Source of the DNA: a virus
Taxonomy: Duplodnaviria > Heunggongvirae > Uroviricota > Caudoviricetes
Length of the DNA: 22,891 nt
Virus record (IMG/VR): IMGVR_UViG_2713896907_000001
Span: 1 to 22,891 of that record
Direction: 5' to 3' (one strand)
The notes under the pieces are model-generated. The model did no database searches. It had not been told where the DNA came from and saw only the letters and a list, made by a program, of their open reading frames with translations. Of this stretch, positions 907 to 21,582 are shown in pieces. The first letter of the stretch is position 1; every line of letters starts with the position of its first letter. The translations under genes and the position numbers were made by a program.

Positions 907-1128
907 TTAGTTATCAAAAAGTCCGTACGTTTCTTCTTCTTCAGGTGTAAGGGGAAGAATCTCTACTCTATCTATAGATACCTTTTCAATGTACCCATGA
1001 GGTCTACTTAAAATTAAAGCTCTCTCATGCCACAGAACTCCAAGAATGTGATACCTTCCAGCATCGCCTTTTACCCTGGCTCTTCCTTTGATTCTTGGCG
1101 GCATAATGCCATATTTTTTCTTTGCCAT
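907..1128 (-). CDS. Hypothetical 73-aa protein, translationally coupled to the upstream antirepressor-like gene
   Basis: ORF MAKKKYGIMPPRIKGRARVKGDAGRYHILGVLWHERALILSRPHGYIEKVSIDRVEILPLTPEEEETYGLFDN; its ATG overlaps the stop of the preceding gene (TAATG at 1126-1130). No family recognised. Confidence 0.45.
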   Translation of the reverse strand: MAKKKYGIMPPRIKGRARVKGDAGRYHILGVLWHERALILSRPHGYIEKVSIDRVEILPLTPEEEETYGLFDN

Positions 1129-1853
1129 TATGCAACATTACTCCCATGAATCAGGTGTTGTAGTGCTTTAACACCTTCCTCATTGTAGCGGAACGCTTCC
1201 ACCTGTTTGCTGGAATGCGCAGATTTATCCAGGAAGAACTTCCCGTACTGCTCAGTTTTGAGGTTGTTTGCGTTAGCAATGCGACCAATCTTGTTGGCCG
1301 TTACTCCAAGCTGCTCTGCAACCTCCCCTGCTGAGTAGTAATGCTCTTCTATTGCCGGAAGAGGTATTGCATTAAAACCAACGAGCGGGTTGATTATACT
1401 TGCTGCCGCTGTCTGCTTTGCCTCCGGCGCAAGATTTGGCATCAGATCGAACAGATTGGTAACAGCTTCAACCGTCATTTTCAATGTTCGCGCTTGACGA
1501 TACTCAACAAGTCCACTCGCTGATTTACCGCTTTTAATGTGCGCTTCCTGCATACTTTCAAGTTTGTCTACAAGTGTTCGGCGAACTGCTTTAGATTCGC
1601 GAGCAGCAACACGAAGCGCCTGCTTGATAGTCATGGAGATAACATCAATGTCAGCCCCGTTTTTCCGACCTACACTTTTTGTGTAGGTCTCGCCTTCCAA
1701 TTCATCCTCAATTTTCTCGATGAATTTGTTGTTACGTACTGATGGCTCTCCACATAACTTGCGAGCTTCATTAACCATCATCAGAAGACTTTGGCTGTCA
1801 ATGGTTTTATCCGTGACAACGGATCCGATGTTTGCTACATTCTTAAAAGTCAT
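1128..1853 (-). CDS. Antirepressor-like protein with C-terminal ANT/KilAC-type DNA-binding region (ant2)
   Basis: Track ORF 1128..1940 begins at a non-ATG codon; the likely start is ATG at 1853 (MTFKNVANIGSV...) preceded by an AAGGAA Shine-Dalgarno. C-terminal segment YYSAGEVAEQLGVTANKIGRIANANNLKTEQYGKFFLDKSAHSSKQVEAFRYNEEGVKAL looks like the helix-turn-helix part of phage antirepressor C-terminal domains. Confidence 0.55.
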   Translation of the reverse strand: MTFKNVANIGSVVTDKTIDSQSLLMMVNEARKLCGEPSVRNNKFIEKIEDELEGETYTKSVGRKNGADIDVISMTIKQALRVAARESKAVRRTLVDKLESMQEAHIKSGKSASGLVEYRQARTLKMTVEAVTNLFDLMPNLAPEAKQTAAASIINPLVGFNAIPLPAIEEHYYSAGEVAEQLGVTANKIGRIANANNLKTEQYGKFFLDKSAHSSKQVEAFRYNEEGVKALQHLIHGSNVA

Positions 1854-1891
1854 TAGGCATTCCTTATGTGGTAGTAAGTGTGTGACATAGG

Positions 1892-1922
1892 CCGCCAGCA
1901 GCACACTGGCGGTTTTCTTTTG
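1892..1922 (+). terminator. Plus-strand intrinsic terminator antisense to the ant1-ant2 junction (candidate end of a sar-like antisense RNA)
   Basis: Perfect 7-bp stem CCGCCAG (1892-1898), 7-nt loop, CTGGCGG (1906-1912), followed on the plus strand by TTTTCTTTTG. No credible plus-strand protein gene ends here. Confidence 0.55.
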
Positions 1923-1940
1923 CGCCGTCCTGTGCACCAA

Positions 1941-2925: not shown

Positions 2926-3246
2926 ATGAGCAAGTTCCCTAGTCATGAAATGGATAGGTTCAATATCAGGCTTCCTGCAGGAATGCGGGATGCTATAGCT
3001 GAACGAGCAAAACGTAACGGCAGATCAATGAACTCAGAGATTGTTCAGATACTGGAAGATGCCTTGAATGCAGAAAATACACTCGGGGAAATAGCAGATA
3101 AAATCAACAGCGTCTCGGTTCCGCTAAATGTTGATGCGCTAGTTCAACTTCAAGCCCAGGTTATCGCCATGCAAAAAGAAATACAGGAAAAGTTCAGAGA
3201 GCAGAACGAAAAGTTGAGAGAACTGCTAAACAAAAAACCCACCTGA
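2926..3246 (+). CDS. Mnt/Arc-family ribbon-helix-helix repressor (paralog B, in the canonical mnt position)
   Basis: MSKFPSHEMDRFNIRLPAGMRDAIAERAKRNGRSMNSEIVQILEDALNAENTLGEIADKINSV... has the RHH core (FNIRLP ... NGRSMNSEIVQ) followed by a coiled-coil-like C-terminus. Divergent from arc, as mnt is in P22 immI. Confidence 0.7.
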   Translation: MSKFPSHEMDRFNIRLPAGMRDAIAERAKRNGRSMNSEIVQILEDALNAENTLGEIADKINSVSVPLNVDALVQLQAQVIAMQKEIQEKFREQNEKLRELLNKKPT

Positions 3247-3271
3247 AGGTGGGTTAATTTTTGCCTTTTTT
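3231..3271. terminator. Bidirectional intrinsic terminator
   Basis: Stem AACCCACC (3236-3243), loop TGAA, GGTGGGTT (3248-3255). Flanked by an A-run upstream and TTTTTGCCTTTTTT downstream, so a U-tract follows the hairpin on either strand. Separates the immI genes from the upstream moron cluster and late operon. Confidence 0.65.
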
Positions 3272-3345
3272 GGACCATATTGACTACTTATAAAATGAGA
3301 TCAATATTTAATCGCCCAATAACGGGTATATGTTGAGGTATATCA

Positions 3346-3524
3346 TGGCGAAAAAACCAGGTGAAAACACAGGAAAAAACGGCGGAATATACCAAGAAGT
3401 TGGCCCACGCGGCGGTAAGAAAGACAATTTTGCAACCGTCAAGGACAACGAAAGGCTTCCACCAACAACAAAGCCAGGTCATGGCTGGGTATTGGATAAG
3501 CGAACTCCAGACAGCAAAAAGTAA
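3346..3524 (+). CDS. YjzC-like small protein
   Basis: From ATG at 3346 (GAGGT Shine-Dalgarno): MAKKPGENTGKNGGIYQEVGPRGGKKDNFATVKDNERLPPTTKPGHGWVLDKRTPDSKK. The KPGE..G.Y.EVG..G and P.T...H.W pattern resembles the YjzC-like family as I remember it. Has its own upstream region after the bidirectional terminator. Confidence 0.55.
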
Positions 3525-3537
3525 TAATCAAGCCGGG

Positions 3538-3903
3538 TCACTCCGGCTTTTTGATATGTCGCTCGCAGAACTCAACAAGCCTGCTCATTAAGTAGCAGTA
3601 AGTCTCGTTGGCTCTTCCTGGTTCAACATCAACACCTACCCTTGAGCAGATATCGAATGCCATGTGAGCGCACTCATGGGCAATAGTAGATAGTTTGCCA
3701 TTGAACACGCCTATCACATGCAAAACACCATTCTCGCTACTCATTGTATGAGACGCTCCGTTGGCGTCCGAGTCATGCACGTCAACGCCAAGTTTTTGAT
3801 GCAGGCGTTGCCATTCTGGAAAGTCTCTACAAAACACAATTGTACCGCTCTCAAAGAGCGGAACGAGCATCTTTGGTACGTTTCCAATGTTAACTTTTTT
3901 CAT
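3538..3903 (-). CDS. Small HExxH zincin-like protein (possible minimal ImmA/IrrE- or SprT-like metallopeptidase fold)
   Basis: From ATG at 3903: MKKVNIGNVPKMLVPLFESGTIVFCRDFPEWQRLHQKLGVDVHDSDANGASHTMSSENGVLHVIGVFNGKLSTIAHECAHMAFDICSRVGVDVEPGRANETYCYLMSRLVEFCERHIKKPE. HECAH motif, with a Glu 17 residues downstream and an ANETYCYLM segment reminiscent of the ImmA/IrrE E..AN.FA..LL motif. Confidence 0.5.
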   Translation of the reverse strand: MKKVNIGNVPKMLVPLFESGTIVFCRDFPEWQRLHQKLGVDVHDSDANGASHTMSSENGVLHVIGVFNGKLSTIAHECAHMAFDICSRVGVDVEPGRANETYCYLMSRLVEFCERHIKKPE

Positions 3904-3933
3904 GGTATCCTGCACAAAACTAAGGAGGTTGGT

Positions 3934-4323
3934 GTGAAGCGATTTCTTGCTGCTATGTTCTTATTCATATCTTTTGAGGCTACAGCAGAGTGCTGGGTCG
4001 TTGGAGATATGCGCGGAATAAGCTATTCAGAACGAAATAATTTCCATCCGGAAGAAGATGGTTTTAGTGGAACATTCATCATTAAGACAAGCGGTGAAGA
4101 TGCCAGCATCACATATTCTGGGACAGATGCGGGCGGCATGGCTTACAAAGCATTGTCTAAAAACTCCATCATAGGAATCGGCGCGAATGGCGAAACTCAA
4201 CGCGTTATCGACTCATGGGTAATACATCCTACTGGAACAGTTTTAATGTCAAAAACCATTTCCGGTTATGGAAATATGGATTCAACCAAAGCTTTTGTTG
4301 GAAAAGTAAAAAGAAAATGTTAG
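3934..4323 (+). CDS. Hypothetical exported protein with N-terminal signal peptide
   Basis: The track ORF 3718..4323 is antisense to the HExxH gene over its 5' half. The likely start is GTG at 3934, 5 nt after an AAGGAGG Shine-Dalgarno (3922-3928). Product MKRFLAAMFLFISFEATAECWVVGDMRG... has a basic n-region, hydrophobic core and ATA-E cleavage-like site; no lipobox. Confidence 0.5.
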   Translation: MKRFLAAMFLFISFEATAECWVVGDMRGISYSERNNFHPEEDGFSGTFIIKTSGEDASITYSGTDAGGMAYKALSKNSIIGIGANGETQRVIDSWVIHPTGTVLMSKTISGYGNMDSTKAFVGKVKRKC

Positions 4324-4347
4324 CGATTGAATCCAATTTCCCATACG

Positions 4348-6222
4348 TTACTGCTGTGTTGCCTCAGTAGCAAACAGCGGTCTGATGGCATTCGCAGCGT
4401 TATTTAGCGCTCTTTCATAGGCTGGTGTTCCTGCTTTGGTGTTTGCCAAACGAAGAAGCATATTCCTTGCGGCTTTGGACTCATACAAACGCATCATTGC
4501 ACCAAAGCCAGCCTCAAGCCCCATTGATACTCCAAGAGTCGCAGTTGCGCCAATCGTCCTTATCCTGTTGGCTTGTGATTGCCCCGTCTGAGTTACTACA
4601 TTTGCGGTGTCTGACCTTGCTGTTTGCTGTAGAACTTCATGAAGAGCATCAAGCTCTTTCATGTGCTTTCCAGAAAAAATAGTGTTGTAAATTTCACCGC
4701 CTGACTGAGATTTAAGCTTATTAACTTCAGTGATGAACTTGGCTGGAGAGTCACCGGCCTTTTCCGCTATTTTGCTGACGTAAGCTGCACGCATAGCATC
4801 TTTCCCTTTATCATCCAATGCGCTCCAGATTCGTTTCACGTCAGATGGCTTTCTGCTTAATACAACGGTATTTATAAGTTCAGGACTGGCTTCACTGCTT
4901 GCCTTGTTGAGCTTGTTAGCAATGTTTTTATTAAGCACCTTATTATAAACGTTTGCATAATCGGAGTTTGCTTTAAGGTATTTTGCTGCGTCTGATGCAC
5001 CGAGGTTTTTTGCAACTGCGCTACGAAGATCTTTTGACATTGCATTCTCTACCATATTGGTAGCTGCTTTTGCCTGGTTGGGGAAGACCATAGCATCTCC
5101 CTGAACATTGGATCTAAATGCTGTTCTGTGCTGACGCAAGAGATCAAACGTAACATCCAAATCAGTTGCAGGGTTTGCTAATTCTTCACGTAGGTTACGC
5201 AAGGATGTAAGCAGGCTTTGATTGGCAGACGTCCCAAGCCGTTCCTGTCTTGCGATCGCTGTATTCAGAGCATTCATGGTATTTGTGGTATCAACTGCGG
5301 CATTACCCATTTTATTGGTGACGTCATTGATAACAGCGCCAGCGGCATCCTTCCGTCCCCTTAACGTGGTGGTCAGAGATTTCACCACATCATCAGGGTT
5401 GTACTCACCAAAACGGTCAAAATAATTGCTTACCAGCTTACTACGCGTTGCATATTGCTCCGCTCGCTTTGAGCCTGTCCCGAGCAAAGCCCCCTCAGCA
5501 TCCTGAGTAAGTCCGCGAGTGAAAGCATTTTTCGGCGGGATAACATCAGATGTCATTGGTGTCACGCCCATCGATTCTGATGTGGCAATTTTCTTCGCCA
5601 CTTCTGGCGCAATATCACCTTTTATAGCCGTTATTCCACGCCCTATTCCCTTTGCTGCTGCGGAAAGAACACCCTGAGCGGCAAGGTTAACTCCGGCATT
5701 TTTAGCTGCATTTTGTGCGAAATCACCTTTCTGATTTGCGGCCTCTGCCAGTGATCCAATAGCCATGCTTCCTGCCGTTCCAACTCCTGGAACTAAATAC
5801 CCGCCAATTGTTTCTCCAGCTTGAGCGTAGGGGTCTGTCGGTCTGTCTACTGGACGATAGACATCATCCAATACTTTTGGCCCACCAAGCCCCTGACTGA
5901 TTGCATTAATCAGACTTGCGCCACCCTGCAATACGTCAAATGGTATGTTTACCAGACCACGACCAGCCTGTTCTGCAATTTGCCCTGCACTTTGACCACC
6001 AGTGAGCCAATCGCCAGCTTGTTGCATCAATGATGGTTCTTCTTTCTGCTGCTGAGGCGGAGGGTATGCTGCATAAAACTGATCTCTTGCTTCAGCCCAT
6101 TTGTCACCAGCCTTAGGGGCAACAACCTCATCAAAATATTGCGCTTGAGCCTGTGCTTTCTGTTCTTCAGTTAACGCCTGATACTGTGGAGAAGCGATAA
6201 CATCTTTCCATGCTTTAGCCAT
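4348..6222 (-). CDS. Ejection (injection) protein, P22 gp16-like
   Basis: 624-aa ORF in the gp16 position, last of the 14-7-20-16 ejection block; size close to P22 gp16; Ala/Gly-rich low-complexity internal region typical of these proteins. Confidence 0.75.
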
Positions 6223-7571
6223 TAATCACCCCATAAAGACGAGAAACCGGACTTATTGCTGTCGCTTCCTGATTTTCGCTCACTAACATATGTGTCATAA
6301 CCTGATGAACTATATCCCATTGATTCAGCCTCCCTTGCTGCAACCTTTTGAAATACAGAATATTGCGATCGGATTTCAGATAACTGTTTTCTGACGACCT
6401 CTTCAGGCTGTGTTATATCGAGTTTCGCGATCAGGTTTTCCAGTTTTTGGCCTTCAGCATTGGAGAGGCTACCCATACCTCGCATAGTCTGCACGTTCTG
6501 GACAAACGCCCCCGACTTTAATTCTTCTATCGCATTACGGTTTGCAAGCCCTTCAGCACTTGTGAAGCCATCTATATTTCTTCCTTCGAAGCGACCAATA
6601 CCTTCAAGCTCCTTCTTACCAAGCAAAGAATCAATTTTCTCTATCCCTCGCTCACCAGTAATTAACGCATTGTTGTAATTATTGTTGCCATCAAGCCATC
6701 TCTTAGCCTGAGACATTCTGGCTGACGTTGCAGCTTTACCGGTTAGCGGATCAATTCCCGTCGCTGCTATCTGTGAGTTAAGAGACAAAACATCCATATC
6801 CTGAAGTTGTCCTGCTCTTTCAAGGGCCGCCTGTGACTGCTTAAACACATACTTGTCGTGATTCAGTCTTGCCATTTGAGCCTTATAGGAAAGATCCTGA
6901 CCCCTAATAGCCCTCGCATTCGTCATGTCATTATTGCGAATGGTTTCTTTAATTCTTTGCTGCTCCTGCTGGCGACCAACCATCTTATCCTGAACAGCAA
7001 ACGCCTTTTCTGGTCCAAGCGCACCGAGAGACATAGTAGTCAGCATGTGTGATAGCTGCTCTGGATTCTGGATACCTGTCTGAATCATCCAGTCAGCATT
7101 AGCGCCAACGCGATTTAACCTGTCCTTGTTGTCAGTAATGAATTTACTGTAGGCTTCCGGTCCCTGAGAAAGAGCGACGTTAGCTCTCATGGCTAAATCG
7201 CCCATATCGTTGCGTTGCTGCTCATTAAGACCGGAAAACGCCTGTTGTGCCTGCGCAACAAACGCTGGATTTTCCTTGGCAAACTTAAATAGTCCCGATG
7301 GATCACCAGAAGCCCATGCATCAGCATGAACCTTATTGAACGCATTAATCGCTTTCTGTTGCTGTTCCTGCTTATAAATATCAGCAACTCCAGCCAGACC
7401 ACGTAACGCGGTCAGACCAACGTTATTTGCACCTGAGCGAGCCAACTCATTGTTTTCGCGGATCAGACCAAGCGTTGCGTTAATGTCGCTTGCCTTTGGC
7501 GCATTCTCATTTTGCGTACCGATGCCAGCCAGAAAACCACCAGAATTAATACCCTGTTGCCACGTAGCCAT
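6222..7571 (-). CDS. Ejection protein, P22 gp20-like
   Basis: 449-aa ORF between gp7-like and gp16-like genes; stop overlaps the start of the next gene; size and position match P22 gp20. Confidence 0.75.
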
Positions 7572-7581
7572 TGATTACCCC

Positions 7582-8274
7582 TTAAAACAACGAGCCAAGC
7601 AGACCAAGACCAGCACCGATACCAGCACCCCACGGAGTTGATAGCTCGAGAGCACTGGCTATGCCACCACCCAAAAGCGCACCGGATGCAGCACCACTAA
7701 CCCCCTGCTGCAATGCTGACGGTCGGTTGGCGTTTGCCGCAGCCAGCGCCGCGCTTTGCTGTGAAATCTGACTCATGTTGTTGGCATATGTTTGCCCGGC
7801 GTTTGCCTGCCCCTGAAGAGCGCCAAGACCGATATTTGCCAGGTTGTTGTAATTGTTCATTTGTCCAGATAGCCATTGCTGACCAAGCGTTGGTGCGATT
7901 GTTGCTAACTGATTACTGGTTGCGGTGGAACCCAATCCACCTGTTGCTTCCGCTGCAGCCAGACTCTGATAGCGAGCCTGACCAGCAAGATCTTTGTACT
8001 GCTGAGAGTTGTAATACTGGTTAAGTGCCTGACCTTGCCCTTCCAGAGACGATAAGTTCTCGAGGCTGCCGAGATACTTATCAGCCAGAGGAGTAAACGG
8101 CTTCAGGTTGTTCATGATGGTGTTGAACTGCTTATTTTGCAGGTCTGCGGCATACTTCTGAGCTTCTGCGGCATACTTTGCACTTTTATCAGAACTGCCA
8201 CCTTTCCCGCCTTTTTCAGGGCAATAAGGTTCCTCGCCGCGCAGTTTTCTGCCCAGTTTAAATGCATATAACAT
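7582..8274 (-). CDS. Ejection protein, P22 gp7-like
   Basis: 230-aa ORF (MLYAFKLGRKLRGEEPYCPEKGGKGG...) with an Ala/Gly/Gln-rich C-terminal region; position after the gp14-like gene. Confidence 0.7.
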   Translation of the reverse strand: MLYAFKLGRKLRGEEPYCPEKGGKGGSSDKSAKYAAEAQKYAADLQNKQFNTIMNNLKPFTPLADKYLGSLENLSSLEGQGQALNQYYNSQQYKDLAGQARYQSLAAAEATGGLGSTATSNQLATIAPTLGQQWLSGQMNNYNNLANIGLGALQGQANAGQTYANNMSQISQQSAALAAANANRPSALQQGVSGAASGALLGGGIASALELSTPWGAGIGAGLGLLGSLF

Positions 8275-13788: not shown

Positions 13789-15987
13789 TTACTGCTGTGG
13801 TTGTTGCTGGGTTGATTTTTGCAGGATGCTGCTGATGTCCATTCGTTGTGCATGGCCCTGTGCCTGACTTTTCAGGACAAGCTCTGCATCAGCACGGGCA
13901 TTGTCTCCTTGCTGTTGCTGGAACTGTCCGAGCAGTTTCAGCGCCTCACGGATATCAGATTTTTGCTGGCTATCGGCAGATGCGAGGATTTTCACAACAT
14001 TTGCCGCAGCAACCTGAGCATCCGTCTGTGCCTGGAATGCTTTAACCTGAATGGCTGCCTGTTCGTTCTGCGCTTTCTGCAATTCAGCCTGACCAGCAAG
14101 AAGCTGACCTTGCGCTGCAACCATAGCCGGATCTGGCTGACTGGCCTGTTGTTGTTTCGCCTGTTCAACCATCTGCTGTTCTTCAGGCGTTCTCGGCTTG
14201 ATAACGCCAGACAGAAGCAACTGATTGCGGTTGTATTCTTTAAGGTCGTCCATCCCTTCGCCGTCCATATTGTCGAGAATCATCGACGATACAAGGTCGT
14301 GCTTCGGCGTTCCTGGTGGGATAAGTGCCAGCATGGAAAGTAACGACTTAACCGTTGCATCACGGCGAGTAGCGAACGACTGACCGACATCGACAGTCAC
14401 TTCATAGTTACCCTGCGAAAGGTCGTTAAGCGCGATAACCTGCCCTGTCTGACGGTCAACCACTTCACCAGTCATCAGCGCCACGTCATCGCTGCCATCC
14501 TCATTAACGATGCGCATTGGCGTATCGCTGCCATAGACTTCACGAGCCATAGAAAGCCACACGACGCCAGCACGGCGCATGGATTTAGCCATGTTGTCCA
14601 TGTAGATATAGGACTGCGTGTCCATCCGATTAAAGATGCTATCAACGGTATCGGTAGCGACGTTGCTCGGCATGTTCTCAAGCTGCGACGCACCTGTAAT
14701 TTGCTGAATAGCCGTTCCGGTGTACTGCAATAGCCCGGCAAGAGCAGGAGGCATTTGTGTCGGAGGTGTCCAGCCAGCAACCTGAGCCTCTGAAATGACC
14801 GTTCCGTTTTTGTCCTTCTTGCTGGTCATGGGAAGAACTGCAGGTCTTTTCTTATTCCTCTCTGCCCAGTGATTCATTAATGGACCGGGAATGAAATCAA
14901 CATCCACGATAGGAATGCCATCACCGCCAGCCTGAGTAGCGTTATCTGCAATCATGGAAACCATCAGGTTCTCAAGACGCTGTGCATCCATCGCTTTTGC
15001 TGCGTGGCCTTCGATTCGCTCCTGATTATCAACAAATGAGCGACGCCCATATACCGGGATGAGAGGAATATGTTCGCCAGGAATACGCTTCGGTTCTTCC
15101 AGCCATTCAGCGCCAGAAAGAAGACCGCAATAAACTCGGCGTTTCTTCACCGTTCTCTCGCCAATCAGTTCGAATGCACCATCGGTCAGCTCGTCGACAA
15201 TATCTTTGATTTGCTCTTCATCATAGATTGCCGTTTCTCCGCTAACAGGGTTGCGCCACGCCGTGAGCTTCACCTTCTCTATGCGAACTTCGTAGTAACG
15301 TCCAACATAGATGGCGTCAGGCGTTGACCAGTCATACTGAGTACCAGTGTCATCCCGAGAAAGGCTTGCCGCAATGGAATCAGGGTATTCAGCCTCGAAC
15401 GCTTTAGGCGTCATGGAGAACATTTCCATAGCCCACATAGCATCAGAGCGGTCATATTGTTTGCTGTCCTGATCGAAGAAGACGCATGTCGCCGGGTCGT
15501 AAACAGGAAGAATGCTGATGCGTCGCTGCTCGTTACTTGGGTCCATTTCATCTTCGTAATCGGCACACATGCGGAAACAACCGAATCCGCCCGTTACAGC
15601 ATCATCAAATGCGTTATCACACGCTTCGCCACCTGATGTTTCCTGATAGTCAGCGCGGAATTTGCCGTTCATCTTTTCGGCTAACGCTTCCGATGCCTTG
15701 TCATCCTTCGGCCTGAATTTAACGCTGATGCGATTCTGTCGATACTCGCCAATGATGCGATCACATTCACGGGCAATCTTATTCAGTTCAAAGCGCGGGT
15801 AATGCTCAAACCTGCCTTCATCAAATGAGTAACCAGCGTTTGTGCTGCCTTCCCACTGTGCGCCGGATACCCGGACGAAACGTTGAGCCTCAATAATCTG
15901 CTCACGCATATCCTGCGTTGCTGACCAGGCATTATCAAAGTTGCACAGCACCTTGCGATGCCAGTCAGTCATCTTTTTTTCTGCCAT
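13789..15987 (-). CDS. Portal protein, P22 gp1-like
   Basis: 732-aa ORF. Segments such as KRRRVYCGLLSGAEWLEEPKRIPGEHIPLIPVYG and the C-terminal Gln-rich helical region ending DISSILQKSTQQQPQQ align with remembered P22 portal (KRRRVYKSIITCT...AGEHIPIVPVFG; long C-terminal barrel). Confidence 0.9.
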   Translation of the reverse strand: MAEKKMTDWHRKVLCNFDNAWSATQDMREQIIEAQRFVRVSGAQWEGSTNAGYSFDEGRFEHYPRFELNKIARECDRIIGEYRQNRISVKFRPKDDKASEALAEKMNGKFRADYQETSGGEACDNAFDDAVTGGFGCFRMCADYEDEMDPSNEQRRISILPVYDPATCVFFDQDSKQYDRSDAMWAMEMFSMTPKAFEAEYPDSIAASLSRDDTGTQYDWSTPDAIYVGRYYEVRIEKVKLTAWRNPVSGETAIYDEEQIKDIVDELTDGAFELIGERTVKKRRVYCGLLSGAEWLEEPKRIPGEHIPLIPVYGRRSFVDNQERIEGHAAKAMDAQRLENLMVSMIADNATQAGGDGIPIVDVDFIPGPLMNHWAERNKKRPAVLPMTSKKDKNGTVISEAQVAGWTPPTQMPPALAGLLQYTGTAIQQITGASQLENMPSNVATDTVDSIFNRMDTQSYIYMDNMAKSMRRAGVVWLSMAREVYGSDTPMRIVNEDGSDDVALMTGEVVDRQTGQVIALNDLSQGNYEVTVDVGQSFATRRDATVKSLLSMLALIPPGTPKHDLVSSMILDNMDGEGMDDLKEYNRNQLLLSGVIKPRTPEEQQMVEQAKQQQASQPDPAMVAAQGQLLAGQAELQKAQNEQAAIQVKAFQAQTDAQVAAANVVKILASADSQQKSDIREALKLLGQFQQQQGDNARADAELVLKSQAQGHAQRMDISSILQKSTQQQPQQ

Positions 15988-15988
15988 A

Positions 15989-17404
15989 TCAACCTACACC
16001 ACAAGGAATTGAGTAACTGGAATAGTCGGGTTGCGCAGCCGACTCCGGGCAATGCATACACATCATCAGCGCATCAGCCAGGTTAGGAGATGGAATACCG
16101 AGCTTCTGCTTCATTTCGACCTTAGTCATAAGCTCCAGCTTCCCGTTGTTATTGAATTTGCGCTGAATCTGCGTAAGTTCTGCAAACAGCTTCTCCAGCA
16201 TCTTCTCGCCTATCGCTTCTTTGTCGAAACTCAGCATGTCGTCTGGGTCTGCATACTCACCGTGAACAACCGCCCGATATGTCAGATACAGCCTGTCAGC
16301 CAGCGCGTAATAGAATTGCGCTCGCTTATTGCGGAAAACATCGCCAATAGTGCGGACGTTGTCTCCCTGCACGACTTCATCAGCCCATGCTCCGGCCTGA
16401 TAAGGCGCATCTTCATCGAATGGCGATTCGCTGCCCTTGAACATCGTGGCGGTAATTTTCTTGCCGGAGAATGCTTCCGTTGTCTGTCTGCGTAGCCCTG
16501 CACCGACACCATCACCATCCCACAGGTAATGGTCAGCGCCGTCTTCAATTGCCAGCGAAGTAGCCCAGTCAGCACCCTCGTTGATGTCCATCAGCAGACC
16601 TTCGGCAATGCGCTTAACTACCGAACCGTGACGCGATGCATAACCTTTAGCATCTGGCCCTGTATCTGATGGGTCATGCGCAGAGACAACAGCGCCTTTC
16701 GCTTTCCATCCGAGTTTCTTGTGCGCATCGGTTGCGGCTTCAAGCCATTCACGTTTGATGATTGCCATATCACTTGCGCTTACTGGCTCACCAAGCCAGA
16801 TGTGACGATACAGTGTCGGGTTTCTGCGTTTACACTCTTCCATCTCCAGACGGAGAACTTCAGGAAAGTGCGGGTTGTCGGTGTAGTTCACCGTCAGCAG
16901 ACAAATATCATCGGGAGGGTTTACTACGAATCGCTGATAGGTATCGTCGAGGATGTTTTTCGGGTTAAAGCTCACCCATATTTCGGAAAACGGCTTGCGG
17001 ATGGTTGGTATCAGGATATCCCATGATTCCTTCGTTACCGCTTCCGCTTCTTCCACCCAGCAGATATCAATGCCTTCGAGCGATTTAATCTTCGTCGGGT
17101 TGTTTTTGATGCCGTAGAACATGAATTCAGCATTCGTTCCGAGATGACGAATCATTGAACGCTGAATTTCAAACTCAGCCGAATACCCTTCCCGCTCTAT
17201 GGTGTCTTCAAGCAACCGGATTACCGAATCGCTGATACTGTTTTGCAGTTCACGAGCGCAGAGAATACGCACAGGCTGCCGACGCGCCGCTTCAACAAGC
17301 AGCCTCGCAATTGCCCATGATTTACCGCTACCTCGACCGCCTTTGGCGACTTTGTAGCGATGCGCCTCAATAAACGGTTCAAAGATAGGATTAATCGAGG
17401 TCAT
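15989..17404 (-). CDS. Terminase large subunit
   Basis: 471 aa, MTSINPIFEPFIEAHRYKVAKGGRGSGKSWAIARLLVEAARRQPVRILCARE... with a Walker A ATPase motif and a C-terminal nuclease region; matches the Sf6-type large terminase as I remember it. Start overlaps the terS stop (ATGA). Confidence 0.95.
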   Translation of the reverse strand: MTSINPIFEPFIEAHRYKVAKGGRGSGKSWAIARLLVEAARRQPVRILCARELQNSISDSVIRLLEDTIEREGYSAEFEIQRSMIRHLGTNAEFMFYGIKNNPTKIKSLEGIDICWVEEAEAVTKESWDILIPTIRKPFSEIWVSFNPKNILDDTYQRFVVNPPDDICLLTVNYTDNPHFPEVLRLEMEECKRRNPTLYRHIWLGEPVSASDMAIIKREWLEAATDAHKKLGWKAKGAVVSAHDPSDTGPDAKGYASRHGSVVKRIAEGLLMDINEGADWATSLAIEDGADHYLWDGDGVGAGLRRQTTEAFSGKKITATMFKGSESPFDEDAPYQAGAWADEVVQGDNVRTIGDVFRNKRAQFYYALADRLYLTYRAVVHGEYADPDDMLSFDKEAIGEKMLEKLFAELTQIQRKFNNNGKLELMTKVEMKQKLGIPSPNLADALMMCMHCPESAAQPDYSSYSIPCGVG

Positions 17405-17841
17405 TTTCCGAATAGAGTGCTCATCGGTGATGTTTCAATCTGAATTGCGCCGCCGTCTTTGCCTGTTAGCTCGTGATCAACCTTGTCGCGCCATTTATCC
17501 TTCTGTCGGTTCTTAAGCCAGAAGATGGCGGCGGTTGTATCAGGCGGGTAATACTTCTCAAGCGGAGTTTCGACAATTCTGTTTTCAATAACACGAATAT
17601 CGATGTCTGGAGCCACGAAGCCCATAGCGCGTTGATAAAGACGGTCACTAACTTCTGCATCAGCGACGGCCTTACCCTTTTTTATGGACTCCGAAAACTT
17701 AGGATAATCAAGCTTCCACTTGTTAATAGTTGACTCACTGACTTCAAAGAAATCAGCAAGTTCTGCATCGGTGTAGCCCAGCAAGCACAGTTTGCGTGCC
17801 TGTTCGGCATACGCCTCTTGATACTTTGTTGGGCGCGCCAT
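17401..17841 (-). CDS. Terminase small subunit
   Basis: 146 aa with an N-terminal helix-turn-helix region and C-terminus ...TGKDGGAIQIETSPMSTLFGK, matching the Sf6 small-terminase C-terminus from memory; directly upstream of terL. Confidence 0.85.
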   Translation of the reverse strand: MARPTKYQEAYAEQARKLCLLGYTDAELADFFEVSESTINKWKLDYPKFSESIKKGKAVADAEVSDRLYQRAMGFVAPDIDIRVIENRIVETPLEKYYPPDTTAAIFWLKNRQKDKWRDKVDHELTGKDGGAIQIETSPMSTLFGK

Positions 17842-18886: not shown

Positions 18887-19375
18887 TTAATAGCCATCAG
18901 AAGTAATCGCTACAGATTTCAATCCCTCAATGTCATCCTTGGACAGGGCGAACCATTCACCGTGCTTTCTCTTTGCGGCAAATTTGCGATGAAGCATGTT
19001 TTCAGTTTCTCTTCCACCAGGGATCAGGCACTCAAGCTTCAAGCAGTCTGGTCCAGAGTTGCCAAGCGATTTGATGCGTTGTGGAATGTTGGATGAATAC
19101 CCAATTTTGGTTAGCCCAGTTTTCTTCGATGACAAAACGTATACCTGAGGAGGTTCTTTTCTCTGGTCTTCCATTACACGTCTCATTGTTGCCATAAGTC
19201 CGCCGTGCATCAGCATTTCAACAAAGAACGCTGACCGAACACCTGACGACTTAAGCATGCCAGAAAATTCACTTGCCAATTCCATTAACTCTGCGATGTT
19301 TTCAGGAACTTTTTGGCAGTTATCTTCCTTGTATAAGGAAATCATTCTTTGAAGCTTTTCTTCTAATTGGTTCAT
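18887..19375 (-). CDS. T5orf172 (GIY-YIG-like) domain protein with short helical N-terminal region
   Basis: From ATG at 19375: MNQLEEKLQRM... The C-terminal part VYVLSSKKTGLTKIGYSSNIPQRIKSLGNSGPDCLKLECLIPGGRETENMLHRKFAAKRKHGEWFALSKDDIEGLK fits the T5orf172 pattern (hydrophobic-Y start, KIG, R..SL, GG.E.E..LH..F, GEWF). Confidence 0.6.
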   Translation of the reverse strand: MNQLEEKLQRMISLYKEDNCQKVPENIAELMELASEFSGMLKSSGVRSAFFVEMLMHGGLMATMRRVMEDQRKEPPQVYVLSSKKTGLTKIGYSSNIPQRIKSLGNSGPDCLKLECLIPGGRETENMLHRKFAAKRKHGEWFALSKDDIEGLKSVAITSDGY

Positions 19376-19524
19376 AGCGTCTTTACCTTTTAGAAAGTGA
19401 GCCTGTCTCACAGAAAAGCCGCCCCGAGATGGTCGCCACCATATACGGCAGTTCTCAGGCTCAACTTTCTGAAAGGCTCGGGTGATGTAATATGCGCGTG
19501 AGATGCGCTGTGAAATTCAGATGT

Positions 19525-19581: not shown

Positions 19582-20019
19582 TTATTTCAGGCATTGCGTC
19601 CTGATGTACTCCTGCAGGTAGTTAACCTGCGCGGTTATCCTGTCGATTCCACTTCGGAGACGGTAATAATTGAGTTCAGCATCTGCTGTAAGTCTTGGGC
19701 TTTCTCCATTGCCCATGCTGCTGGCTCCGGTCGTTGACTTTGCACAGGTGGCGGCGACTTGCAGGCGCTTACGACCAGCAGAAACATCAGCACGGAGACT
19801 TTCGATAGTCGCGTTAGCATCAGCAAGCTCCTTTGTGTATCTGGCGTCGAGTTCAGCTACATCACGTTGACGCTTCTGCATATCAGAGATGATAGATGTG
19901 GCTTTATCGCGCTGGTCTTTGTAGGCGATGGCGTTATCACGGTAATGATTAACAGCCCATGACAGGCAGACGATGATGCAGATAACCAGAGCGGAGATAA
20001 TCGCGGTTACTCTGTTCAT
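19582..20019 (-). CDS. Rz-like i-spanin
   Basis: From ATG at 20019, overlapping the endolysin stop (ATGA): [79 protein letters not shown]...; N-terminal transmembrane segment plus coiled-coil periplasmic domain; last gene of the lysis cassette. Confidence 0.8.
19635..19826 (-). CDS. Rz1-like o-spanin lipoprotein, embedded in Rz in another frame
   Basis: [42 protein letters not shown]...: signal peptide with lipobox VSAC and a proline-rich mature region, fully nested in the Rz gene; exact start uncertain. Confidence 0.6.
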
Positions 20020-20513
20020 TGCTGACCCCACAAACAGATTTCACGCTCAATCTCACGACGAGTCATGAGACCTTTCCATTGCTTACCGCCAGCGTATGTC
20101 CAGCGACGTAGCTGATCACATGCGCCTTTGATATCGCCCTGGTTTATTTTGCGAAGAAGCGTCGATGTTCTGAAATTGCCAGCGCCCACGTTGTAAACGA
20201 ACGAGTAAAGAGCGCCGCGCGTTGTTTCCGGTATATCAACTTTTATGTACGGGTTAATTTGTCTGGCGGCCGTGGCAAGGTCTTTATTCAGGAGGGCTTT
20301 GCATTCTGCTTCGGTATACGTTTTACCGGGAATGATGTCTTTTCCTGTATGCCCGTAACATACCGTCCATACACCAACTATGTCTTTGTAAGGATTATGT
20401 CTCACACCTTCCAGACCATCGTTACCACTTGGGCCAGTGATTAACACAGATGCTATGGCAATAGCCCCGCCACCAATAGCAGCAGCAACGGCTTTTCGTA
20501 ATGATGGAGGCAT
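20016..20513 (-). CDS. SAR endolysin (phage-21 R-type lysozyme)
   Basis: 165 aa; N-terminal weakly hydrophobic Gly/Ala-rich signal-anchor-release segment ([20 protein letters not shown]), then [23 protein letters not shown] with an E-8-D-5-T catalytic spacing; directly after the pinholin. Confidence 0.85.
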
Positions 20514-20728
20514 TATTCACCTCTCGCAGCCTTTCGTCTGTCTTCTCTGATTTTGAAATACAGATTTGTCAGATAAGTGAGAAAACCCAAGACAAGGCTT
20601 CCAAGCACTCCAATCGCAGCCCACTGTGACGGACTGACCTGATCCAACCACTGCAAAAACCAGTATCCCGCACTACCAGCAGATGTTCCGTAGGCAATGC
20701 CAGTTGAGATTTTGTCCATTGATTTCAT
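20513..20728 (-). CDS. Pinholin, phage-21 S21-type, with dual-start motif
   Basis: [71 protein letters not shown] matches remembered phage 21 S21; two in-frame Met codons (MKSM) consistent with antiholin/holin starts; strong GGAGG ribosome-binding site. Confidence 0.85.
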
Positions 20729-21093: not shown

Positions 21094-21582
21094 CTATGCT
21101 ACATGTTTAATTTTCTCTACACGTTTCCGATTTTTAAACGCACTATCCAGAACCGGGTAAATCATAAACAACGAGGCATTAAGGATTTCGTCAACTTCCC
21201 GTCGACAGGTTGCGAGCGATGGTTTTTGAATGCGCCCGCCGCCACGGCATAACATCTTGCGAGGTCTTGCGACGCGATGATAGTAAGATGCAATGGCGTG
21301 CCTGGAAGAGCCATGAGCGTAGTAGCTGAGGAGGATTCCAAAGGCTTTTTTGTCAATGTACATGACGGAATCGACGACCTGAGAAATCAACATTCCATCA
21401 TCATCATTACACATTGGCCTTGTCATAACTCTTCCCGGCTCTACGCTCTCCATGAACTTCGCTATTACGCTGCTCATGCGCTTTTCCAGACGACCTGAAT
21501 AAACCCATGCGCCCCACAGTTCAAGCCAGCCATTCAGCCACTCGTGCTGTTCTTTGGTGAGGTTTAGTTCTCTTATGCTCAT
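21094..21582 (-). CDS. Putative late-gene antiterminator Q (phage 21/82 type), by position
   Basis: 162-aa ORF MSIRELNLTKEQHEWLNGWLELWGAWVYSGRLEKRM... between ninH and the late leader/lysis cassette, the invariant position of Q in lambdoid phages; start overlaps the ninH stop. Called by synteny, not by recognised sequence. Confidence 0.55.
   Translation of the reverse strand: MSIRELNLTKEQHEWLNGWLELWGAWVYSGRLEKRMSSVIAKFMESVEPGRVMTRPMCNDDDGMLISQVVDSVMYIDKKAFGILLSYYAHGSSRHAIASYYHRVARPRKMLCRGGGRIQKPSLATCRREVDEILNASLFMIYPVLDSAFKNRKRVEKIKHVA

Follow-up and report, generated by a model that had tools for sequence, protein, structure and literature searches.

The open reading frame (ORF) at positions 3538–3903, on the minus strand, of a 22,891-nucleotide stretch of viral DNA (IMG/VR record IMGVR_UViG_2713896907_000001, positions 1 to 22,891, referred to here as the window) is hkcC, an already known accessory gene of P22-like phages. 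Its product, HkcC, belongs to a large, phage-specific protein family (PHROG 1365) that is best read as zincin-like metalloenzymes, nearest to phage SprT-like proteins, with a glutamate as the inferred third metal ligand. We put at roughly 0.4 the probability that HkcC is a late-expressed accessory mini zinc-peptidase whose likeliest role is linked to packaging or virion production. New here is the zincin-type signature: neither hkcC nor PHROG 1365 has a function or zincin annotation in the resources queried. The original prediction, made from the sequence of the window, had given exactly these coordinates without stating the strand and had described a minimal HExxH zincin-like protein, a description that the invariant HExxH, the zincin order of elements in the structural model and the SprT-like and metalloprotease structural neighbours bear out. 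Its figure of 122 amino acids (aa) is the number of codons including the stop; the protein has 121.

The HExxH motif is present in 170 of the 177 relatives retrieved. Among the seven that do not have it, six are truncated, frameshifted or fused alleles, and the remaining one (P0138) has HKAAH; the HECAH motif of HkcC (residues 76–80, codons at 3664–3678 on the minus strand), already pointed out in the original prediction, is thus not a chance occurrence. In an alignment of 115 diverse relatives, 23–78% identical to HkcC, only G49, H76, E77, H80 and E100 are invariant, which upholds the zincin assignment on the point of HExxH conservation among homologs. G90 and Y104 are kept in at least 90% of these members, and N99 exceeds 90% in the C-terminal sub-alignment. 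The cysteine of HECAH varies across the PHROG 1365 family, in which HELAH and HEAAH are common.

E100 lies 20 residues after H80, inside an ANE motif (N99–E100 codons at 3604–3609, minus strand; the segment ANETYCYLM spans residues 98–106). It is the sole invariant residue downstream of H80, no histidine being invariant there in the 115 members. The glutamate 17 residues downstream that had been singled out does exist, as E94 counted from E77, but it is replaced by Q, R or A in homologs, and the conserved acid is E100. A supposed echo of the ImmA/IrrE signature E..AN.FA is likewise out of register, with the conserved Glu following AN and the variable E94 preceding it. The invariant set matches the pattern expected of a gluzincin-type site, in which two His and, from the next helix, a Glu bind the metal and a further Glu is catalytic; E100 is the putative third metal ligand.

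An AlphaFold2 model of HkcC, built with 20 homologs, has a predicted local distance difference test (pLDDT) score of 89.3 and a predicted template modelling (pTM) score of 0.83. It comprises strands at residues 11–13 and 21–25, a helix at 28–37, strands at 49–56 and 59–66, and two further helices, one at 71–88 carrying HExxH and one at 100–116, of which E100 is the first residue. Minimal zincin catalytic domains consist, in this order, of a sheet with a backing helix, the active-site helix and the ‘glutamate’ helix. The predicted HkcC fold (β-β-α-β-β, HExxH helix, Glu helix) follows this canonical order of elements, so that structure prediction speaks in favour of the expected zincin fold. Read on this model, the helix after the small β-sheet would supply two metal ligands (H76 and H80) and the catalytic base (E77), and the next helix a third ligand (E100), giving a site of gluzincin type on a scaffold that most resembles phage SprT-like proteins.

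Searched with Foldseek against the PDB, the model has no significant match among solved structures, the best being the SprT domain of SPRTN (6mdx; E = 0.2, probability 0.47). Among predicted viral structures (BFVD) there are 26 matches at E ≤ 1e-3, with template modelling (TM) scores of 0.5–0.8, all of them to small phage proteins. The named matches are ‘SprT-like’ (E of 2.5e-5 and 4.5e-4; TM 0.50–0.65) and, beyond the cut-off, ‘Metalloprotease’ (E = 2.4e-3). Models labelled as IrrE have E ≥ 0.036 and TM ≤ 0.42.

Scans of HkcC against Pfam and NCBIfam returned only spurious lantibiotic models, drawn by a Cys/His-rich stretch, and the same scans of the family consensus returned no match. Defence models of PADLOC-DB, at E ≤ 1, matched neither HkcC nor its neighbours Orf59a and a 129-aa protein. 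Scanned one by one against Pfam, 31 of the 115 relatives match SprT-like below threshold (best E = 1e-4), whereas HkcC itself has no SprT-like match at E ≤ 10; in P0066 the HExxH region falls on positions 63–96 of the SprT-like profile with 15.7 bits (cut-off 25.6). DUF5700, DA1-like, M50B, M48, reprolysin and DUF4344, most of which are metallopeptidase families, match one to three relatives each. Peptidase_M78, the ImmA/IrrE family to which the original prediction pointed, does not match HkcC at E ≤ 10 and is not among the 25 commonest families matched by the 115 relatives at E ≤ 1. By curated thresholds the HkcC family lies outside both PF10263 and M78.

Comparison with PDB sequences gave no match for a profile of close homologs (A1). 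Matches of a broad profile (A2) were nearly all to HExxH peptidases, namely myroilysin, the astacins BMP1 and tolloid, thermolysin and peptidyl-Lys metalloendopeptidase, with one unrelated lipid-binding protein besides; their E-values were 0.05–1.3, none of them significant. HkcC residues 71–117 align without gaps to thermolysin residues 134–180, placing H76, E77, H80 and E100 on H142, E143, H146 and E166; at E of about 1 this alignment is non-significant, although in register. The C-terminal half had no match in the PDB as a single sequence and, as a profile (A3), non-significant similarity at the level of HExxH to HtpX, neurolysin and botulinum neurotoxin.

hkcC is under protein-level selection. 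In comparisons with homologs at 57–78% identity, the proportion of synonymous differences (pS) is 0.74–0.94, which is saturated, against a proportion of non-synonymous differences (pN) of 0.13–0.30. A single-sequence search with HkcC found 32 relatives. When a profile was run over 1.84 billion representative proteins, 517 clusters (50% identity level) matched at E ≤ 1e-3, 143 of which reached E ≤ 1e-10; nearly all are stand-alone proteins of 100–140 aa. All 115 aligned relatives match PHROG 1365, labelled ‘unknown function’, and HkcC matches phrog_1365 over residues 1–121 with E = 1.7e-39. A Pfam domain was found on none of 62 relatives retrieved with profile A2 from a set of 5.8 billion proteins; tblastn with the family consensus found P22-like phages only. 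Family-wide protein conservation, together with the pN/pS pattern, excludes the alternative that hkcC is no more than an artefact lying antisense to the PsieA promoter and the t_mnt terminator.

Decayed hkcC alleles, frameshifted or fused, occur in some prophages (P0007, P0012, P0015, P0027 and P0028). In P0007, HkcC residues 1–98 are joined to the C-terminal 56 residues of a 73-aa ORF, found at 907–1128 in the window, an arrangement implying that the whole intervening immI region has been lost; in P0027 the allele is fused to an antirepressor C-terminal domain.

The gene starts with ATG at 3903–3901 and ends with TGA at 3540–3538, and an AGGA Shine–Dalgarno sequence (3908–3911, minus strand) lies 4 nucleotides (nt) 5′ of the ATG. 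HkcC has a mass of 13.6 kDa, a pI of 6.4 and five cysteines, and is predicted to be soluble, with neither a signal peptide nor a membrane segment identified by sequence analysis. It is 99% identical in amino acids to the product of HK620 hkcC (AAK28904, labelled ‘unknown’), which according to the HK620 annotation ends in the ‘bidirectional terminator tORF59A’, and 99% identical to that of an intact 121-aa ORF of P22 (L001, 3310–3675, minus strand). The P22 ORF has no CDS annotation in AF527608, NC_002371.2 or BK000583, where the only features that overlap it are the PsieA promoter and the t_mnt terminator. It is annotated in the records of other P22-like phages and named in the literature: in Villafane et al. 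2008, both hkcC and 59a appear among the P22 genes without a known function (PMC2629481). Literature searches on hkcC found no functional study. The hkcC-containing block is present in 218 of 5426 complete E. coli RefSeq genomes, annotated there as ‘hypothetical protein’. The three phage genes share the slot between gene 16 and the mnt/tailspike side, the late-gene strand, the terminator and the orf59a neighbour, and they differ in the flanking cassette: the window has a gene for a 129-aa secreted protein in this place, P22 has sieA and HK620 has hkcB.

Overwhelmingly, PHROG 1365 is an accessory gene of late or morphogenesis modules, and its modal slot is immediately upstream of the terminase genes. 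The Orf129 clade (38–42% identity; ST64T orf-129, phage L Orf129, epsilon34 gp70 and ST104 orf47) lies between the lysis genes and the small terminase gene terS, often after a DUF2560 gene; this usual predecessor is orf-118 (L004 3141–3890 in ST64T; also L098, L101 and L104). Some P22-like phages (SE1, ST160, Phi75, UAB_Phi20 and ST-35) have both Orf129 and hkcC. In mEp044 the relative is again found between the lysis genes and terminase. Elsewhere, relatives are located 4 base pairs (bp) upstream of an Sf6-type terS and after a lysis cassette (L128, 6001–6522), upstream of the large terminase gene TerL and a P22-type portal gene (L108, L114), between TerL and portal together with an HNH gene (L109), just before a presumed TerL (a 472-aa ORF with no Pfam match) and portal (L110), directly after an SPP1-type portal gene (L111), and 2 kb upstream of a Terminase_3 gene and portal (L113, L122). 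Exceptions are found near a VapE-like gene (L112), near ParB (L129) and, in a phiKMV-like phage, between the ligase and RNA polymerase genes. Virulent phages with a family member include the N4-like phCDa and the Autographiviridae Lolek and Kurepalu-1. Several distant members (P0066, P0073, P0136 and P0158) have long Lys/Arg/Pro-rich C-terminal tails, which may bind nucleic acid or the inside of the capsid; P0066 is the member encoded 4 bp upstream of the Sf6-type small terminase gene.

The window is from a P22-like (Lederbergvirus-type) phage or prophage, probably of E. coli. All its late genes are on the minus strand, in the late order 7-20-16 ... 9, and hkcC has the same orientation. They include a Q-like gene (21094–21582), the lysis genes (19582–20728), TerS (17401–17841), TerL (15989–17404), portal (13789–15987), gp7 (7582–8274), gp20 (6222–7571) and gp16 (4348–6222). 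A 174-aa ORF (18887–19411, minus strand) lies between the lysis genes and the terminase region; an Orf129-type paralog is absent between the lysis and terminase genes of the window, which has hkcC only. A promoter scan of 3904–4500 on the hkcC strand found no sigma-70-like promoter for the gene.

In P22 the ‘ant moron’ region has been placed inside the late operon (PMC2629481), and deletion of sieA is said in the literature to ensure robust tailspike synthesis. By the interpretation that we favour, hkcC would be read not from the prophage but by the gp23-antiterminated late transcript that runs from gene 16 through the ‘ant moron’ to the tailspike gene 9. A zinc peptidase expressed from that transcript would act late, in the cytoplasm of the virus-producing cell and on a protein substrate. 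By analogy with SprT and Spartan, HkcC may remove or process a protein, such as one bound to DNA, that hinders the packaging of the genome or the production of virions. This role is ranked first on account of the SprT-like affinity, the synteny with terminase and portal genes and the Lys/Arg-rich tails of some members. On the same reading, hkcC is not part of the Arc/Mnt/Ant immunity switch.

A bolder form of this proposal, which we consider unlikely, is that PHROG 1365 proteins are phage-specific minimal SprT-like gluzincins belonging to a DNA-packaging toolkit and stripping bound proteins ahead of the terminase motor. The late protease would typically be encoded just upstream of terS/terL, hkcC of P22 being a displaced copy, and its targets might be trapped topoisomerases, nucleoid proteins or defence effectors covalently or tightly bound to replicated DNA. 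If true, Spartan/Wss1-type repair of DNA–protein crosslinks would have a first viral counterpart, and one tied to genome packaging.

Several observations weigh against a packaging-linked peptidase. HkcC falls under the threshold of every curated model tried (Pfam, NCBIfam and PADLOC). In the structural model E100 opens its helix and H76 and H80 come 8–12 residues before the end of theirs, so that the proximity of the three at a metal site is assumed only. Late expression of hkcC is deduced from orientation only, and the packaging role from synteny; accessory genes in general tend to accumulate upstream of terminase, and the hkcC clade itself occupies another part of the late operon. Finally, hkcC is dispensable, because many P22-like phages do not have it and prophage alleles are truncated or fused.

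Second to the packaging role we rank a late counter-defence or host-takeover protease, a somewhat unlikely reading in which HkcC cleaves an immune protein of the host or of a resident prophage, for example one of the sensors of terminase, portal or capsid. It draws on the same zincin evidence, and several features of the family's distribution suit it: the gene is a patchy accessory in hypervariable ‘moron’ slots flanked by swapped cassettes, the family occurs in virulent and temperate phages alike, and co-expression with terminase and portal would suit the neutralization of their sensors. It also agrees with the proposal of Iyer et al. 2021 that phage SprT-like and ArdC-like metallopeptidases probably target host proteins (PMC7824862). 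A literature search for work on SprT-like proteins of phages in connection with anti-defence or terminase turned up no functional study. Known anti-defence genes are for the most part early, however, whereas the hkcC family is mainly in late or packaging modules, and the hkcC clade is 97–100% conserved over many P22-like prophages, unlike fast-evolving arms-race genes. The lack of a PADLOC match also counts against it, although PADLOC covers defence and not anti-defence proteins.

The immediate surroundings of hkcC form a block (3230–3936; query 631–1337 in a megablast search against phages) that is about 97% identical in DNA to P22 and its relatives and contains the orf59a promoter region, orf59a, the terminator and hkcC, with swapped cassettes on both flanks. 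The orf59a homolog (3345–3524, plus strand; 59 aa) matches phrog_3202 with E = 7e-31 and Pfam YjzC with E = 1.3e-3, the latter below cut-off, and is preceded by a sigma-70-like promoter candidate (3280–3308, plus strand; TTGACT, 17-nt spacer, AATATT) that is a consensus match only. Convergent orf59a and hkcC share a GC-rich hairpin (3530–3549, from a terminator scan), which overlaps the last hkcC codons and has a good T-run only on the plus strand, that is, opposite to hkcC; it is annotated as t_mnt in P22 and as the ‘bidirectional terminator tORF59A’ in HK620. On the other side, 31 bp from the hkcC ATG and divergent from it, the 129-aa gene (3934–4323, plus strand; phrog_2651), with a signal-peptide-like N terminus, occupies the position of P22 sieA.

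In 80 IMG/VR loci HkcC is 98–100% identical and both flanks are swapped. The divergent slot 31 bp upstream holds sieA, hkcB, the 129-aa gene, or a Rap1a-like or ClpP-like gene. The PsieA promoter annotated in P22 falls within the first codons of hkcC; this and the interchangeable cassettes suggest that the conserved 5′ end of hkcC may be a promoter for the inserted cassette. Downstream, convergent orf59a is found at a distance of about 20 bp in 78 of the 91 loci examined (69 of the 80 from IMG/VR), and in the other 11 IMG/VR loci an unrelated gene for a 74-aa membrane protein takes its place, with the junction directly after the hairpin. The convergent pair recurs in siphovirus-type prophages of six other genera, with identities of 46–63% for HkcC and 64–81% for Orf59a (L086 6001–6556, L087 6001–6563, L089 6001–6526, L094–L096 and L107). 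There it lies in the tail-gene cluster, between tube/YdaY-like genes and the tape-measure gene, and hkcC is always on the structural-gene strand; the hosts are Rosenbergiella, Klebsiella oxytoca, Xenorhabdus, Proteus and a Pasteurellaceae, in addition to metagenomic contigs. Homologs from Arsenophonus and Moraxella, and the entire Orf129 clade, have no orf59a.

This linkage raises the possibility of a two-gene cassette, in which HkcC would be a protease and Orf59a its substrate, inhibitor or antitoxin, the two moving together as a toxin–antitoxin-like, exclusion or lysogenic-conversion module. The frequency of the convergent arrangement, the retention of the pair at the above identities in siphovirus-type prophages and metagenomic contigs, and the common hairpin terminator speak for it. 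Yet an unrelated gene replaces orf59a in 11 of 80 near-identical loci, which excludes Orf59a as an obligatory antitoxin, and the lineages without orf59a keep their hkcC relatives. The opposite orientation of orf59a and its own promoter suggest that the two genes are expressed at differing times (prophage versus late), and the linkage could be a mere effect of the 20-bp distance. A functional HkcC/Orf59a pair is thus possible, and not obligatory, and the cassette as a full explanation is quite unlikely.

Similarly doubtful is a zincin-like scaffold that is not a peptidase, namely a metal-dependent hydrolase of nucleic acid or another substrate, or a non-catalytic binder associated with terminase. 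YbeY, a nuclease with a metalloprotease-like motif, provides a precedent. The recurrent slot adjacent to terS/terL, which in other phages is held by HNH nucleases (the HNH gene of L109), the basic C-terminal tails of some members and the absence of a significant match to any solved peptidase are compatible with such an activity. The invariant H-E-x-x-H...E, however, including the general-base Glu, is a peptidase signature, and the weak sequence and structure matches are all to peptidases (SprT-like, astacins, thermolysin, M3, M9 and HtpX).

An expanded immI-like region lies beyond orf59a. It contains ribbon-helix-helix (RHH) genes of Mnt/Arc type, two on the plus strand (554–892 and the Mnt-like 2926–3246) and an Arc-like one on the minus strand (2641–2829), as well as two differing antirepressor-type genes (1941–2651 and 1128–1940, minus strand; Bro-N + P22_AR_C and phrog_1726) and the 73-aa gene of phrog_4977 (907–1128, minus strand). 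The original prediction rightly placed the ORF next to an Arc/Mnt region and rightly noted that there is no adjacent XRE repressor, its neighbours being RHH proteins, orf59a and a secreted protein. A function along the lines then proposed, an ImmA/IrrE-type (M78) antirepressor cleaving Mnt, Arc or C2, or an exclusion effector of the immI region, shares with IrrE/ImmA the HExxH and a downstream Glu and has the mnt, arc and ant genes close by, but is very improbable and largely refuted by context: in addition to the missing Peptidase_M78 match and the poor scores of the IrrE-labelled models, it has no XRE or helix-turn-helix partner; hkcC is on the late-operon strand, convergent to mnt and orf59a; close homologs in siphovirus-type tail clusters have no Arc, Mnt or Ant gene nearby; distant relatives adjoin terminase and portal genes, and some are encoded by virulent phages of the N4-like and T7-like types; in HK620, mnt and ant are reduced to remnants but hkcC is retained; and sieA by itself suffices for SieA exclusion (PMC10883804).

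P22 is among the best-studied phages, yet hkcC is missing from its reference annotation. The predicted chemistry of HkcC is itself ordinary. E77A and H76A point mutants in tractable P22 offer a cheaply testable hypothesis for a family of more than 500 clusters, and the outcome would extend to members across temperate and virulent phages, which are usually encoded beside packaging genes. If the substrate is a host defence protein or a DNA-bound roadblock, HkcC would represent a new class of phage late function; otherwise hkcC stays an ordinary accessory gene, and what is gained is that its annotation is put right and a misleading ImmA/antirepressor label is dropped.

Besides the thermolysin-type gluzincins (M4) and M3/M9 peptidases, three groups of known metallopeptidases are relevant for comparison. 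ArdC-type and polyvalent-protein metallopeptidase domains, encoded by plasmids and phages, are proposed cleavers of host proteins (PMC7824862) and offer an analogy in function for the counter-defence reading. By description, they form part of larger multi-domain proteins; HkcC stands alone. ImmA/IrrE proteins (MEROPS M78, PF06114) resemble HkcC in their HExxH, downstream Glu ligand, small size and encoding by phages or mobile elements, and HkcC differs from them by the lack of a profile match, weak structural similarity, no adjacent XRE-type repressor, late-operon orientation, occurrence in virulent phages and an out-of-register ‘E..AN’. SprT-like proteins use as third zinc ligand a His that follows HExxH (H130 in SPRTN). 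HkcC, which has no conserved third His after HExxH, departs from these proteins in this respect, and also has neither a Zn-ribbon nor a dedicated DNA-binding domain, unlike SprT-like, Spartan and Wss1 proteins; none of its relatives reaches the 25.6-bit gathering threshold of PF10263. The SprT-like/Spartan/Wss1 zincins (PF10263) have been termed ‘minigluzincins’ (PMC4559962), and what HkcC has in common with them is a small HExxH module in which a β-sheet is followed by the active-site helix.

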